Shown one piece after another: positions 5,513-42,316 of a stretch of DNA of 64,000 nt. The DNA lies in assembly GCA_044226655.1 (NCBI GenBank), contig JBGAGO010000004.1, positions 16,644 through 80,643 of the forward strand. The letters are read 5' to 3'. The notes below the pieces were generated by a model. It searched no databases. It was not told the origin of the DNA and saw nothing but the letters and a program-made list of their open reading frames with translations. Both the position numbers and the translations under genes were made by a program. The first letter of the stretch is position 1. The number at the start of each line of letters is the position of its first letter. The stretch is from Caulobacterales bacterium (GTDB lineage: Bacteria > Pseudomonadota > Alphaproteobacteria > Caulobacterales > Aquidulcibacteraceae).

Positions 5513-5998
5513 GGCCTCACAGACCTTCTTGAGCGCCGAGAGCTGAAGCATGCCCCAGCCCTGCTCGTAGCCCTCATGCTCGGCGCCGACATCGCCGCCG
5601 ACACGCTCGAAACCGTGATGGAAGAGCTCGACCAGCGCGCCGCCCAGGGCCGGCGTCAGCCGCAGAGTCAAATAGGTCGGCGCCTGCCAGCCGAGATTGG
5701 GAATCCAATCGTTCTCGAACGTGAACGCGCGCGCCGGATCGAATGTGACAATGTCTCCGCCATAGCGCACGCGCGCGCCGTTCATGTTCACCTCCATCTC
5801 GATGCGCCCGCCCACGCGCGGCTCGTACGCCATCAGATATTGGCCGCGGCTCTCGCCCGCTTCCGGCGTTCCAACGACGAGCCCCCACCAGGCATTCATC
5901 GCATCGAAACTCGCAAACGCGCGCCAGACCCTCGCCGGCGGCGCGTTGATGAGGATCGAACGGCGGATTTTGAGGACGCTGGCGTCTGGATTGCTCAT
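5510..5998 (-). CDS. SRPBCC/AHSA1-like domain protein
   Basis: MSNPDASVLKIRRSILINAPPARVWRAFASFDAMNAWWG is a typical Aha1/SRPBCC N-terminus. The start is taken at the internal ATG (5998). Confidence 0.75.
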   Translation of the reverse strand: MSNPDASVLKIRRSILINAPPARVWRAFASFDAMNAWWGLVVGTPEAGESRGQYLMAYEPRVGGRIEMEVNMNGARVRYGGDIVTFDPARAFTFENDWIPNLGWQAPTYLTLRLTPALGGALVELFHHGFERVGGDVGAEHEGYEQGWGMLQLSALKKVCEA

Positions 5999-6920: not shown

Positions 6921-7379
6921 TCCTCCCCCGTTTACGGGGGAGGTGGCCGCGAAGCGGCCGGAGGGGGGAGCCGCTGCGCAATCGTCAGCCAAACGCCATC
7001 AAGATTCTCATAGATATCCGCGTTGGTGATGCGAAGCACCTGCCACCCTGCGGCTTGAAGAAAGGCCGTGCGCCTTTCGTCATGCGCCAATTGTTCGGGC
7101 GTCCAATGCGTCGCGCCGTCGACCTCGAGTGCAAGCTTGGCGGCGACGCAGGCGAAATCGACAACATAGGGGCCGATCGGATGCTGTCGGCGAAACCTGT
7201 GATGATTGAGCGCGCGCCGCCGCAGATGCGCCCACAGGATCGTCTCCGCGTTCGTCAGCGTGCGACGCAGGCGCCGCGCATGAGGTCTGGAGCGATATTC
7301 GCCCTCCCGCATCGCGTCGGCTCCCCCCTCCGTCTCGCGGCTTCGCCGCGATCCACCTCCCCCGTAAACGGGGGAGGAG
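6921..7379. repeat. composite palindromic element enclosing a DUF559 gene (filled copy 1)
   Basis: The left arm (6921-6972) is tcctcccccgtttacgggggaggtgg-ccgcgaagcggc-cggaggggggagcc. The right arm (7319-7379) is its near-perfect inverted copy. Confidence 0.75.
6932..7312 (-). CDS. DUF559 (Vsr-like PD-(D/E)xK) endonuclease domain protein
   Basis: FRRQHPIGPYVVDFACVAAKLALEVDGATH...GWQVLRITNADI is the DUF559 signature. The C-terminal PPPAASRPPPP is encoded by the repeat arm. Confidence 0.85.
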   Translation of the reverse strand: MREGEYRSRPHARRLRRTLTNAETILWAHLRRRALNHHRFRRQHPIGPYVVDFACVAAKLALEVDGATHWTPEQLAHDERRTAFLQAAGWQVLRITNADIYENLDGVWLTIAQRLPPPAASRPPPP

Positions 7380-7388
7380 CAAGGCCCT

Positions 7389-9170
7389 CTAAAACGCCTC
7401 CGCGGCGAGCGCCATCAGCGGCGCGGCGCCGCTTTTGAGTTTGGCGAGATGTGCGCCGGTTTCGGGGAGTTTGCGGGCGAAGAAATAGGCGGCCGTCGTC
7501 AGCTTGGTCTCGTAGAACGGATCGCCGCCCTTCTTCGCGAGCGCCGTCTTCGCCATCAGCGCCCACATGTAGGAGAGCGCGGTGAGGCCGAAGAGATTCA
7601 AGAAATCATGGCTCGCAGCGCCGGCATTGTCTGGGTTCGCAAGCGCATTTTCGAACAGCCAGGTGACGCCGTCCTGCAAATCGTCGCGCGCGCGCTTCAC
7701 GCCGGCGGCGTAGTCCTTCATCGCCGCATCGCCCTCCTGCGCAGCGATGAACGCATCGAGTTCGGCGATGAAGGTTTGCAGCGGACGCCCGCCCTGCATC
7801 ATCAGTTTGCGGCCGACGAGATCGAGCGCCTGCACGCCATTGGCGCCTTCGTAGATCATGGTGATGCGGGCGTCGCGCACGAACTGGCTCATGCCCTGCT
7901 CTTCGATATAGCCGTGGCCGCCGAAAATCTGCTGGCAATCGGTGGCGGTGAGATAGCCGTAATCGGTGAGATAGGATTTCAGCACCGGCGTCATCAGCGC
8001 CATGTAATCGGACGCCTTCTCGCGCAGAGCATCGTCGGGCGAGACGTTCAGAAGATCCCCATAGAGCGCGGTCCAGAACGCGAAGCAGCGCGCGCCTTCG
8101 ATGAAGCATTTGGCGTCCATCAGCATGCGCCGCACATCGGGATGCACAATGATCGGATCGGCGGGGCCGTTCGGATTCTTCGGGCCGGTTAGCGCGCGCA
8201 TCTGCAGGCGGTCTTTCGCGTAGGCGACAGCGTTCTGATACGCGGTTTCGGCCTGCGCCATGCCCTGCAGACCCACGCCGAGGCGCGCTTCGTTCATCAT
8301 GGTGAACATGGCGTTCAGGCCGCGATTGGCCTCGCCGCAGAGATAGCCGATGGCGTCATCGTAATTGAGCACGCAGGTCGCATTGCCGTGAATGCCCATC
8401 TTCTCTTCGATCTTGCCGCACACGACGCCGTTGCGCGCGCCGAGCGAGCCGTCCGCGTTGAGCAAGAATTTCGGCACGACGAACAGCGAAATGCCTTTCG
8501 TGCCCTGCGGCGCGCCTTCGATGCGCGCGAGCACGAGATGGATGATGTTGTCAGCGAGATCGTGTTCGCCGGCGGAGATGAAAATCTTCTGGCCGGTGAT
8601 GCGGTAGGAGCCGTCCGCGGCCGGAACGGCCTTGGTGCGCAAAAGGCCCAGATCCGTGCCGCAATGCGGCTCGGTGAGGTTCATCGTGCCGGTCCATTCG
8701 CCGGTCACCATTTTGGGCAGATAGGTTTTCTTCAGCTCGTCCGCGCCGTGATGCAGGATCGCTTCATAGGCGCCATGGCTGAGCCCCGGATACATGCCGA
8801 ACGCCATGTTGGCGCTCGACACCATTTCGTTGAACGCGAGATTGACGATGCGCGGCAGACCCTGGCCGCCATAGGCCGGCTCGCTCGACAGCGAGGGCCA
8901 GCCGCCCTCGCACATTTGTTTATACGCGTCCTTGAAGCCCGTCGGCGTCTTCACCGACCCATCGGCGCTGCGCGTGCAGCCTTCGCGGTCGCCAACCGCA
9001 TTCAGCGGCGCCAGCACGTTTTCGCAGAGCTTGGCGCCCTCTTCGAGAATCTGCTCGACGAGATCGAGCGGCGCATCCGCGAAGCGCGGCAGGTTGGCGT
9101 AGCGCTCCAGTTCGAGCACGTCGCGCAAAAGAAAACGGTATTCGCGCAGCGGCGCGGCATAGCTGGGCAT
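7389..9170 (-). CDS. long-type acyl-CoA dehydrogenase (about 590 aa, with C-terminal extension domain)
   Basis: ACAD N, middle and C domain patterns (GGQGLP, LTEPHCGTDL, ISAGEHD, FGGHGYIEE). 593 aa. Confidence 0.9.
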   Translation of the reverse strand: MPSYAAPLREYRFLLRDVLELERYANLPRFADAPLDLVEQILEEGAKLCENVLAPLNAVGDREGCTRSADGSVKTPTGFKDAYKQMCEGGWPSLSSEPAYGGQGLPRIVNLAFNEMVSSANMAFGMYPGLSHGAYEAILHHGADELKKTYLPKMVTGEWTGTMNLTEPHCGTDLGLLRTKAVPAADGSYRITGQKIFISAGEHDLADNIIHLVLARIEGAPQGTKGISLFVVPKFLLNADGSLGARNGVVCGKIEEKMGIHGNATCVLNYDDAIGYLCGEANRGLNAMFTMMNEARLGVGLQGMAQAETAYQNAVAYAKDRLQMRALTGPKNPNGPADPIIVHPDVRRMLMDAKCFIEGARCFAFWTALYGDLLNVSPDDALREKASDYMALMTPVLKSYLTDYGYLTATDCQQIFGGHGYIEEQGMSQFVRDARITMIYEGANGVQALDLVGRKLMMQGGRPLQTFIAELDAFIAAQEGDAAMKDYAAGVKRARDDLQDGVTWLFENALANPDNAGAASHDFLNLFGLTALSYMWALMAKTALAKKGGDPFYETKLTTAAYFFARKLPETGAHLAKLKSGAAPLMALAAEAF

Positions 9171-16380: not shown

Positions 16381-16523
16381 GTCCTTCTCCCCTTGTGGGA
16401 GAAGGTGGATCGCCGCGAAGCGGCGAGACGGATGAGGGGTGTTTTCGCTCTTCTTTCAGAACAAGCGCCGTCACCCCTCATCCGGCCCTTCGGGCCACCT
16501 TCTCCCACAAGGGGAGAAGGACG
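16381..16523. repeat. composite palindromic element, empty copy (no ORF in centre)
   Basis: Left arm: gtccttctccccttgtgggagaaggtgg...acggatgaggggtg. A 29-bp centre follows. Right arm: tcacccctcatccg...ccaccttctcccacaaggggagaaggac. Confidence 0.75.
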
Positions 16524-27959: not shown

Positions 27960-28766
27960 ATGACCACGCCCTTCGCCACCTACGAAAAATCCGGCCGCGT
28001 GGCCATTATCACGTTCAACCGGCCCGACAGCCGCAACGCCATCGCCAGCCATCAGGATTGCGCCGATCTGGTCGCGGTGTTCCAGCGCGCCAATGACGAT
28101 CCGGACATCAATGTCGCGATCGTCACCGGCGCGGGCTCCGCATTCTGCGCGGGCGGCGATTTGAAGGCCATGAAGGAGCGCAAGGGCATCGGCCCGCTCG
28201 CGACGCCCGCGGATACGCGGCAGAATTACAAGCGCGGCGTCCACGCCATCGCGCGCGCCATGCAGGAATTGGAAATCGCCACCATCGCGGCAGTCAACGG
28301 CCACGCCATCGGGCTGGGGCTCGACCTCGCTGTGTTGTGCGATCTGCGCATCATCTCGGAGACGGCGCGCGTGGCGTGTTCTTTCGTCAAGGTCGGCATC
28401 GTGCCGGGCGATGGCGGCGCTTGGGTGCTGCAGAAGGCGATGGGCTATTCGAAAGCCGCCGAAATGGCGCTGACGGGCGAGCAATATACGGCGCAGCAAG
28501 TGGTCGAGATGGGCCTCTTCTCCAAAGCGGTCGCGCCCGACAAGCTCATGGAGGAAGCGCGCGCGCTGGCGGACCGCATCGCGGTCAACCCGCCGCGCTC
28601 GATCCGCATGACCAAGCGCCTGCTGCGCGAAGCGCAACACGCGCGCTATGCCGACATTCTGGAGCTTTCCGCCGCCTATCAGGCCATCGCGCACGAAACC
28701 GCCGACAATATCGAAGCCATCGACGCCTTCATCGAGAAGCGTCCGCCAAAATTTACGGGCGCGTGA
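27960..28766 (+). CDS. enoyl-CoA hydratase/isomerase (crotonase) family protein
   Basis: VAIITFNRPDSRNA, GAGSAFCAGGDLK and AAVNGHAIGLGLDLAVLCD. Confidence 0.9.
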   Translation: MTTPFATYEKSGRVAIITFNRPDSRNAIASHQDCADLVAVFQRANDDPDINVAIVTGAGSAFCAGGDLKAMKERKGIGPLATPADTRQNYKRGVHAIARAMQELEIATIAAVNGHAIGLGLDLAVLCDLRIISETARVACSFVKVGIVPGDGGAWVLQKAMGYSKAAEMALTGEQYTAQQVVEMGLFSKAVAPDKLMEEARALADRIAVNPPRSIRMTKRLLREAQHARYADILELSAAYQAIAHETADNIEAIDAFIEKRPPKFTGA

Positions 28767-29612: not shown

Positions 29613-29669
29613 CGCGAAGCGCAACACGCGCGCTATGCCGACACTATCGAAGCCGCCGGCGCGTGACAT
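29613..29669 (+). pseudogene. decayed duplicate of the 3' end of the enoyl-CoA hydratase gene
   Basis: A 31-nt exact match to 28627-28657 (cgcgaagcgcaacacgcgcgctatgccgaca). Two shorter blocks follow (tatcgaagcc, ggcgcgtgacat) that match the hydratase 3' end and stop. Confidence 0.65.
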
Positions 29670-29672
29670 CGT

Positions 29673-30125
29673 CCCCTCTCCCCCTTGCAGGAGGAGAGGG
29701 TTAGGGTGAGGGGGTGAGCGCGACGATCGGGGATTTCATGCGCCAAGCCACACGCAGCCAAGTGCGAGCCGTGCTCTTGCGCGCAGAGCCAAGCGCTGCG
29801 GAAAAGGCGCTTTGGAAGCTCCTCCGCGACCGCCAGCTCGCCGGCGCGAAATTTCGACGGCAACATCCGATTGACCCTTTTGTTGTCGACTTCGCCTGCG
29901 TGGAGGCCAAGCTGATCGTGGAGGTTGATGGGCTCAACCACGCGCTTGAAGAACAGCGCGTGTTCGATACGAACCGCACGGCTCATCTCGAATCTGCGGG
30001 CTGGCCCATGCTGCGCGTGAGCAATGATCAGGTGTTGTCCGACCCAAGCGGCGTCACCATCGCGATCGCGCAAGCGCTGGCGCGGCCCCCTCACCCAACC
30101 CCTCTCCCCCTCTCGGGGGAGAGGG
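29673..30125. repeat. composite palindromic element enclosing a DUF559 gene (filled copy 2)
   Basis: Left arm: cccctctcccccttgcaggaggagagggttagggtgagggggtgag. Right arm: ccccctcacccaacccctctccccctctcgggggagaggg. Confidence 0.75.
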
Positions 30126-30130
30126 CTTAA
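29738..30130 (+). CDS. DUF559 (Vsr-like) endonuclease domain protein
   Basis: [44 protein letters not shown]...[12 protein letters not shown]. An alternative GTG start exists at 29714 inside the repeat arm. The C-terminus is encoded by the right arm. Confidence 0.8.
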
Positions 30131-36680: not shown

Positions 36681-36848
36681 TCGCCCTTCTCCCCTTGTGG
36701 GAGAAGGCGTCATCGCCGAAGGCGATGACGGATGAGGGGTGATGGCGCGTTCGCCGAAGACGACGCGCAGACACCCCTCACCCTGCGTCGCGTGTTCGCA
36801 ATCGTTGCGCGCGCTCGTCCCTCTCCCACACAAGGGGAGAGGGACGAG
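36681..36848. repeat. composite palindromic element, empty copy (no ORF in centre)
   Basis: Left arm: cccttctccccttgtgggagaaggcg..acggatgaggggtg. A 30-bp centre follows. Right arm: cacccctcaccc..gtccctctcccacacaaggggagagggac. Confidence 0.7.
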
Positions 36849-38253: not shown

Positions 38254-38280
38254 CGCGCGCCCTCCTTCAGGAAGAAAGCT

Positions 38281-38360
38281 CGCGAGCGTCGTTCTCTCAT
38301 GGGAAAACGCGCCAAGCCTGGCGGACCTCTAAGTCCGTCGCAACGCTCCTTGGCGCGCGG
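38281..38360 (-). promoter_or_regulatory. SAH riboswitch in the ahcY 5' leader
   Basis: The minus-strand RNA reads GCCAAGGAGCGUUGCGAC-GGACUUAGAGGUCC-GCCAGGCUUGGC...AACGACGCUC. This matches the SAH-riboswitch core (GAGGAGCGCUGCGAC / GCCAGGCUCGG / AACGGCGCUC pseudoknot) as I recall it. The SD GAAGGAGGG and the ATG follow. Confidence 0.85.
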
Positions 38361-42239: not shown

Positions 42240-42316
42240 TGGCGCGCCCGAAGAGATTCGAACTCCTGACCCTCAGATTCGTAGTCTGATGCTCTATCCA
42301 GCTGAGCTACGGGCGC
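42240..42316 (-). tRNA. tRNA-Arg (anticodon ACG)
   Basis: The minus strand reads GCGCCCGTAGCTCAGCTGGATAGAGCATCAGACTACGAATCTGAGGGTCAGGAGTTCGAATCTCTTCGGGCGCGCCA. It folds into a 77-nt cloverleaf with a 7-bp acceptor stem, anticodon loop CUACGAA and an encoded CCA. Confidence 0.92.

Follow-up and report, generated by a model that had tools for sequence, protein, structure and literature searches.

DUF559 genes, which encode small nucleases with a Vsr-like fold, lie inside or beside short palindromic repeats in a member of the Caulobacterales related to Terricaulis and the Hyphomonadaceae, and the ten DUF559 genes of this genome carry ten different repeat signatures. The window considered here is the whole stretch of 64,000 nucleotides, and positions are those of the window unless a contig or locus is named. 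It contains two cassettes, that is, DUF559 genes enclosed by inverted repeat units (6921–7379 and 29673–30130), and two doublets of such units that have no gene between them. The best-supported reading of these data is a cognate nuclease–repeat system analogous to REPIN/RAYT. Action of each DUF559 protein on its own repeat sub-family is in our view somewhat probable; a stronger statement, according to which these nucleases also carry out the propagation of the repeats, is rather doubtful. Binding, cleavage, the cleavage site and any part that the nuclease may play in the copying or upkeep of the repeats are inferred; the nuclease could nick DNA to start copying, homogenise the repeat cores or resolve harmful structures. 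New from the genome under study are the ten coexisting gene–repeat pairs, the sub-family-specific co-occurrence of genes and repeats across genomes, and the counts of three-way covariation within the repeat unit.

The first cassette contains DUF559 gene #1 (6932–7312, minus strand; 126 amino acids, aa; Pfam PF04480, E-value 3.6e-34), whose product has the catalytic residues D52, E63, D65 and H69. The gene is bounded by three-part inverted arms, as the initial annotation of this DNA had proposed. The outer arm pair (6921–6946 and 7353–7378; 26 nucleotides, nt) is 100% complementary, and the inner pair (6959–6978 and 7313–7332; 20 nt) is 90% complementary. The 3' arm starts with a hairpin of sub-family E (6922–6943; CCTCCCCC GTTTAC GGGGGAGG). 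It is followed by the spacer tGGCCGCgaaGCGGCC (6944–6959), which pairs with itself into a mini-hairpin and joins the hairpin to the G-box GGAGGGGGGAGCC (6960–6972, plus strand). The G-box mirrors GGGGGAGG, the purine arm of the hairpin, and is a candidate third strand of a triplex. The 5' arm, upstream of the gene, comprises a C-box (7319–7331, minus strand), which is the upstream G-box GGAGGGGGGAGCC on the gene strand and ends 6 nt before the ATG, a spacer mini-hairpin (7332–7355) and a hairpin (7356–7377). This arm begins 11 nt past the stop codon of a gene encoding acyl-CoA dehydrogenase (ACAD; 7389–9170, minus strand). The arms had been described as terminal inverted repeats; the inverted arms are real, but they are not ordinary terminal inverted repeats, each being built of a pyrimidine/purine hairpin, a spacer and a mirror G-box. 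The arm does encode the end of the DUF559 gene, although the number of codons is about 15 and not about 12 as estimated before. The encoded C-terminal tail is LPPPAASRPPPP, and the stop codon is located in the loop of the hairpin at 6922–6943.

In several cassettes (7319–7331 in the window; the upstream arms of loci L006–L008 in relatives) the upstream G-box, GGAGGGGGGAG or TGAGGGGG, ends at a distance of 4–6 nt from the start codon of DUF559. Ribosomes could bind at this G-box, and folding of the arm might thereby control DUF559 translation.

In the repeat unit, a pyrimidine arm and a purine arm are combined with a G-box that mirrors the latter, and the units usually form inverted doublets. 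Judged by sequence, the arms are members of the published class of intrastrand-triplex repeats (TM_ECO/BoxC). The polarity of the hairpins is nearly uniform, with 384 pyrimidine-first hairpins in the genome versus 4 purine-first ones. The G-box mirrors the hairpin purine arm in every sub-family, if T is allowed for A, and 271 of the 384 hairpins match a mirror sequence by 85% or more on just one of their sides. The mirror score, 7.8/8 versus 6.8 for the direct-repeat control, comes from a partly circular comparison, and the test against the arms of other families is only partly informative, as the units were pre-selected by the mirror score and all arms are G-rich. The count of three-way covariation between the pyrimidine arm, the purine arm and the G-box is a cleaner test. 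In family A, the combination T/A/A is observed in 65 units and C/G/G in 10, with no mixed cases. For the outer pair of the CTCCCCC hairpins, C–G is accompanied by G in the G-box in 101 units and G–C by T in 47, again with no mixed cases.

Triplex formation has been demonstrated only for the Escherichia coli motif of this class, in vitro, by circular dichroism and nuclear magnetic resonance; this motif occurs in inverted pairs of two unit types and has no mobility genes in its vicinity (Holder et al. 2015, PMC4666352, which cites Hoyne et al.). The same paper associates triplex repeats with genomic instability and names no DUF559, endonuclease or partner protein. The repeats considered here share with the TM_ECO/BoxC/PIT repeats the order of pyrimidine arm, loop, purine arm, short linker and G-rich mirror of the purine arm. 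Further, they share with TM_ECO/BoxC the intergenic location, the frequent inverted pairing of two unit types and the highly conserved core, and the left arm of the second cassette (..GGAGAGGGTTAGGGTGAGGGGG) is almost the E. coli consensus. Unlike TM_ECO/BoxC, many units have a self-pairing spacer of 14–35 nt instead of the 3-nt linker, and a single genome contains ten or more sub-families, every one of them linked with a DUF559 gene. Rfam has no family covering the elements. Enterobacterial palindromic repeats were reportedly surveyed by Bachellier et al. in 1999.

The spacers in the genome are either 0–3 nt long or 14–35 nt long and self-pairing; the mean folding energy of 116 distinct spacers is −10.6, compared to −4.5 for shuffled ones. 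In the alignment of 41 family A doublets, the core (hairpins and G- or C-boxes) is 97% identical, whereas identity in the variable columns (both spacers plus the centre) is 51%, with 86% as the upper limit for any pair. Changes in the spacer stems of this family are compensatory. The divergence of the variable columns beside such uniform cores points to old copies, whose cores are apparently held constant by something that reads sequence.

The genome, an assembly of 3.44 Mb in 8 contigs (99.97% complete), contains 384 units and 140 inverted doublets of 90–199 nt (median 138 nt). It has ten DUF559 paralogues, ten being found both by tblastn and by profile search, and their alignment to the window copy shows 36–48% identity. 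The initial annotation had named a genome-wide survey of the arms around DUF559 genes as a check on its proposal. When inspected by eye, all ten genes are touched by repeat units; the hairpin finder placed a hairpin beside nine of them (P about 2e-11; 5% of random 370-nt intervals are near a hairpin), and it is known to overlook some stems, for instance those with G–C pairs next to the loop, as at gene #9. Three genes (#1, #2, #9) are situated between two half-arms, four (#3, #4, #7, #10) between two complete doublets, and the remaining three (#5, #6, #8) have a doublet at the 3' end only.

The ten genes carry ten different hairpin/G-box signatures, one gene per sub-family. Units were assigned to sub-families by edit-distance scoring around the detected hairpins, and 319 of the 384 (83%) match one of the ten gene-linked signatures within a small edit distance. 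The largest sub-families are B (88 units) and A (83), followed by C (44), D (40), F (28) and E (18), and the others have 1–7 units each. For sub-family A, the cognate gene is #3, which is located on a contig other than that of the window (C8). In abundance-weighted draws, the chance that all gene-adjacent families differ is 4e-7 if ten families are considered, and 0.006 with only the six large families; the latter figure avoids the circularity of rare families defined by gene flanks.

The Pfam DUF559 bit scores of the two window genes are 117.3 and 116.6, with the gathering cut-off being 20.6. Residues D52, F53, E63, D65, G66, H69 and R94 are kept in all ten paralogues. The closest pair of paralogues is only about 48% identical. 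The genes appear to be under purifying selection, with the catalytic core intact in every paralogue. The family profile matches PDB entry 3HRL (E-value 2.5e-35) and, weakly, the Vsr-fold mobile-intron nuclease 3R3P of the I-Bth0305I type (E-value 6e-6). The profile search found no transposase domain in the genes of the elements, which match DUF559/Vsr-like.

The co-occurrence of genes and repeats was assessed in 30 related genomes from 24 genera, using a generic hairpin pattern, with the reversed pattern as the control. The twelve relatives that lack DUF559 have 1–48 matches (median 6.5), and the eighteen that have it, 11–267 (median 155); the genome under study has 721. The repeat load correlates with the number of DUF559 genes (Spearman rho 0.76, p 1e-6; Mann–Whitney P 1.4e-5; rho 0.19 for the reversed-pattern control). 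The relatives are not independent samples, so these P values, like the Fisher values below, overstate independence, and the incompleteness of metagenome-assembled genomes (MAGs) can hide genes.

The organisation of the loci is retained in the relatives. For this comparison 55 DUF559 loci were fetched, and the DUF559 genes inside the fetched ACAD loci were scored too. About 58 of the 64 DUF559 matches in these two sets are flanked by units, mostly in the arrangement unit> gene <unit. A phylogeny of DUF559 set against the arms, another check named in the initial annotation, shows that the protein clades keep one G-box type across genera. The G-box GGAGGGGG is observed in all members of the 12-member clade d1, GGAGGGGGT in clade d7, GGGGGTGGGG in clade d5, GGATGGGG with TGAGGGGG in clade d4, and GGGTGGGG in clade d10.

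The distribution of hairpin types follows the clades in three cases. Apart from one doublet in another genome, type B hairpins are restricted to the four genomes that have a gene of clade d7 (Fisher 1.6e-4). Clade d4 is represented in two genomes, and each of them has about 20 copies of the type C hairpin, which is present in 3 and 1 copies in two others (Fisher 0.013). Type D hairpins are seen in the three genomes with a d5-clade gene, in one 77%-complete congener and in one other genome (Fisher 0.002).

Several observations weigh against the cognate system. Type A hairpins occur also in five genomes without a d3-clade gene (Fisher 0.045), and type E hairpins in twelve genomes without a d1-clade gene, with 35 copies in G027 (Fisher 0.036). 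The association with the gene clade is clearly looser for A and E than for B, C and D, and this is a real weakness; part of it may come from G-boxes being shared between clades, the arms of d2 and d3 being alike. Doublets persist in three genomes without DUF559 (G022, G005, G010). A part of the correlation between gene number and repeat load is trivial, since each gene brings its own arms. The rare sub-families (those of #2, #6, #8 and #9) are defined mainly by the flanks of their own gene, and 65 of the 384 hairpins fit no gene-linked signature, being lone hairpins, members of a few minor types or of one small gene-less family. No recent copies were found within a family, as no pair exceeds 86% in the variable columns, and any current mobility is therefore conjectural. 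Finally, no published activity was found in the literature for a stand-alone DUF559 protein.

The persistence of doublets without the gene may be explained differently, if the repeats arise or are spread by host processes or by another enzyme, and DUF559 rides along or finds landing sites in them without acting on them. The occurrence of types A and E without their gene clades fits this explanation, as do the lack of mobility genes around the triplex motif of E. coli (Holder et al. 2015, PMC4666352) and the variation of the site downstream of ahcY within a genus (an A doublet, an E-like doublet or none), where doublets come and go alone. However, for a mere passenger one would expect decay or copy-number variation, whereas the catalytic core is kept in ten of ten paralogues and in nearly all relatives. 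Exactly one gene per sub-family is observed, the clade-specific arm types are kept across genera, and the repeat load tracks the number of genes. Moreover, the 97% conservation of the core needs a sequence-specific reader of the hairpin and the G-box. We consider the passenger explanation unlikely. As for the genomes without DUF559, only 25 sites, heterogeneous in sequence, are present in G022, a complete genome; perfect 8-bp stems make up 52% of them, versus 94% of 357 sites in the genome under study. This is what decay after gene loss would look like, in one genome.

At one orthologous site, the entire cassette was inserted into a junction devoid of repeats. In seven relatives the ACAD gene and the OsmC-like gene are adjacent, the stop codon overlapping the start of the next gene (TGATGG), and there is no repeat. 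At that exact junction, two Terricaulis MAGs (L006 and L007) have an orthologous cassette, arms included, with protein identity of 63–66%. In L006 and L007 the cassette is flanked left and right by the heptamer TGATGGC, which may be a target duplication of 7 bp. In a third MAG, the cassette is one gene further on, and the upstream OsmC-like gene reads into the arm.

The cassettes of clade d1 are present in 11 of the 80 fetched ACAD loci, with the split match of L008 counted twice; they occupy different junctions of the same ACAD/OsmC/thiolase operon. The DUF559 genes near ACAD (L006, L007, L008, L016, L036, L042, L053, L075, L076, L078) are always co-oriented with the operon. Their best match is paralogue #1, and those long enough for the tree belong to clade d1. 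Members of different families have their d1-clade genes in one and the same beta-oxidation operon, and in three genomes a d5-clade gene precedes the same MidA-like gene. Downstream of ahcY, the site contains an A doublet in the genome under study, an E-like doublet in one congener (comparison of L144 and L143) and only a plain GC hairpin in another, which indicates independent gains at one gene end. Therefore, the cassettes and doublets come and go, and the genes are long-resident and single-copy.

These data bear on the explanation initially proposed, that the nuclease gene is a selfish insert of the homing type: the nuclease would cut the centre of an empty doublet, and repair from a filled copy would put the gene between the arms. 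Three of the ten genes (#1, #2, #9) and most genes in the relatives indeed lie exactly between two inverted units, and within sub-family E filled and empty versions of one architecture coexist, as proposed. There, about ten gene-less doublets have the same arms, with a centre of 25–35 nt where the filled copy has its gene. Cassettes are present or absent at orthologous loci of the relatives, and the weak profile match to 3R3P points in the same direction. The Vsr-fold homing endonucleases (I-Bth0305I, 3R3P) and free-standing homing endonuclease genes likewise combine a small Vsr-like fold, an open reading frame in structured DNA and presence or absence at conserved loci. On the other hand, each sub-family has one gene despite up to about 40 empty copies with 55-nt arms suitable for ectopic repair, and even the closest paralogues are only about 48% identical. 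Seven of the ten genes are outside doublets, and the gene positions are conserved over genus-level divergence. The empty ACAD/OsmC allele has no repeat at all. In contrast to the known homing endonucleases, there is no intron or intein, and the gene brings its own arms. Insertion of the gene into repeat centres by homing is thus improbable, and this part of the initial annotation is not supported.

Its converse suggestion, that the gene-less doublets are derivatives that lost the gene, similar to miniature inverted-repeat transposable elements (MITEs) with an autonomous parent, is weak. The likeness consists in short non-coding copies sharing inverted arms with a longer coding copy and in the possible 7-bp duplication (TGATGGC). 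However, there is no transposase of a known class, no target-site duplication is seen at the 41 family A ends, the copies are old and not near-identical, and no gene remnants are seen in the centres of the gene-less doublets.

A different role of the nucleases would be that of a host caretaker. The related Vsr is a repair nickase, and the DUF559 proteins could be structure-specific repair nucleases that resolve the triplex or cruciform of their own sub-family, for example at stalled forks, co-evolving with the repeats as an antidote with no propagation of them. Each gene is present once, has been resident for long, shares the orientation of the host operon and is apparently kept by purifying selection, and the number of genes scales with the repeat load. 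The association of triplex repeats with genomic instability (Holder et al. 2015, PMC4666352) is also in line with this role. It leaves unexplained, however, why the gene sits inside or beside its own repeats, why the cassette moves with its arms into naive sites, and why the core is identical in about 40 copies. It also names no spreader of the repeats, and we regard it as improbable. Programmed inversion between the arms may also take place. One row of a table in one paper lists DUF559 among the products enriched as predicted inversion targets. In L006–L008 and L053, where the two arms are unlike, the orientation of the gene towards them is constant.

We return to the cognate nuclease–repeat system. 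Each nuclease would recognise the folded or sequence-specific core (hairpin and G-box) of its own sub-family and would nick or process DNA at this core. Its action would keep the cores of the gene-less doublets uniform, and the doublets would be multiplied or retained. The DUF559 gene would persist because it lies within its own repeats.

The closest functional analogy is REPIN/RAYT, the enzyme and the DNA fold being unrelated. In both systems, palindromic doublets are dispersed over the genome, and repeats of its own family flank a gene that is present once. Several orthogonal pairs per genome and co-occurrence of genes and repeats across genomes are also common to both. Long-term residence as a single copy has been reported for RAYT genes, and the DUF559 genes are long-term residents too. 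The DUF559 system is not a member of the REPIN/RAYT family, because its enzyme is a Vsr-like PD-(D/E)xK nuclease and not an HUH/Y1 (IS200/IS605-like) transposase. Other differences are the three-part unit of the triplex type, compared to the REP hairpin with a GTAG-type guide, and the conservation of the core modules only, the spacers and centres drifting freely. The RAYT, or REP-associated tyrosine transposase, systems are said to be covered by Nunvar (2010) and by Bertels and Rainey (2011).

The literature search found no paper describing a link between DUF559 and palindromic repeats, in agreement with the initial annotation, which considered this relation uncharacterised. DUF559 is a very large protein family without an assigned function, and triplex repeats have been known for decades, in E. 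coli as well, without a partner protein or an origin. Cognate pairing, if true, would account for DUF559 and for the triplex repeats together. It would also add a second kind of gene-plus-repeat replicator to REPIN/RAYT, and would imply sequence- or structure-specific nickases reading the triplex fold. As a tentative extension, in our view less probable than its negation, the DUF559/Vsr-fold nucleases may be the missing partners of the BoxC/TM repeats, each reading a folded three-strand motif. The ten orthogonal pairs would then be a second, independently evolved REPIN/RAYT-like replicator in bacteria. The genome is an unusually clean test bed, with ten pairs and copy numbers from 1 to about 40, and assays of cognate versus non-cognate pairs are designable from the sequences.

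The second cassette in the window (29673–30130) has arms of the same design as the first one, with a different sequence. The left arm (29673–29719, plus strand) is formed by an imperfect hairpin (29674–29700), TTA and the G-box GGGTGAGGGGGTGAGC. DUF559 gene #2 (29714–30130, plus strand; 138 aa; Pfam DUF559 E-value 6.1e-34) is 48% identical to #1 in the alignment. The right arm (30086–30128, minus strand) comprises a C-box (30086–30096) and a hairpin (30097–30128); it encodes the C-terminal tail of the protein (14 residues) and ends 13 nt before the start of a frmA-like alcohol dehydrogenase gene. The presence of a second DUF559 gene within three-part arms is thereby confirmed. The cassette is missing at the frmA-like gene in six relatives, where the upstream neighbours differ and no exact empty site is definable.

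The two gene-less doublets of the window, likewise noted in the initial annotation, are both located between convergent genes. The first one (16383–16520) has the hairpin CCTTCTCCCCTTGTGGGAGAAGG and the G-box GGATGAGGGGTG. In the second one (36685–36848), downstream of ahcY, one unit is a CCCTCTCCCC / GGGTGAGGGG variant. They had been taken, together with the two cassettes, for empty and filled versions of one scaffold. The architecture is the same, but both empty doublets belong to sub-family A, which is the sub-family of neither filled cassette.

Near the second cassette, a 38-nt direct repeat (28626–28663 and 29613–29650; 92% identical), which is a decayed copy of the 3' end of a gene, brackets about 1 kb. 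The repeat ends 23 nt short of the left arm.

At the TGATGG overlap of the ACAD/OsmC junction, L008 has a different palindromic insert (5797–5935; ..cgtcattccgg...ccggaatgacgg..). The junction seems to be an insertion hot spot.

Gene #5, the doublet downstream of it and the MidA-like methyltransferase gene form one open frame of 602 aa (C8:1208600–1210415, outside the window). The same continuous frame is seen in another genus (L120), and it is broken by a frame shift in a congener (L106).

No DUF559 gene of the assembly belongs to a small family of hairpins with the sequence CCTTCTCCCCCGCGAGGGGGAGAAGG (examples are C5:607016–607167, C8:354585–354736, C8:1165110 and C5:406561). Some of its copies have the spacer 'aaatgcggc..gccgcattt' and no G-box.

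Two ordinary Rfam matches in the window are an SAH riboswitch upstream of ahcY (38277–38357, minus strand) and a tRNA gene (42243–42316, minus strand).

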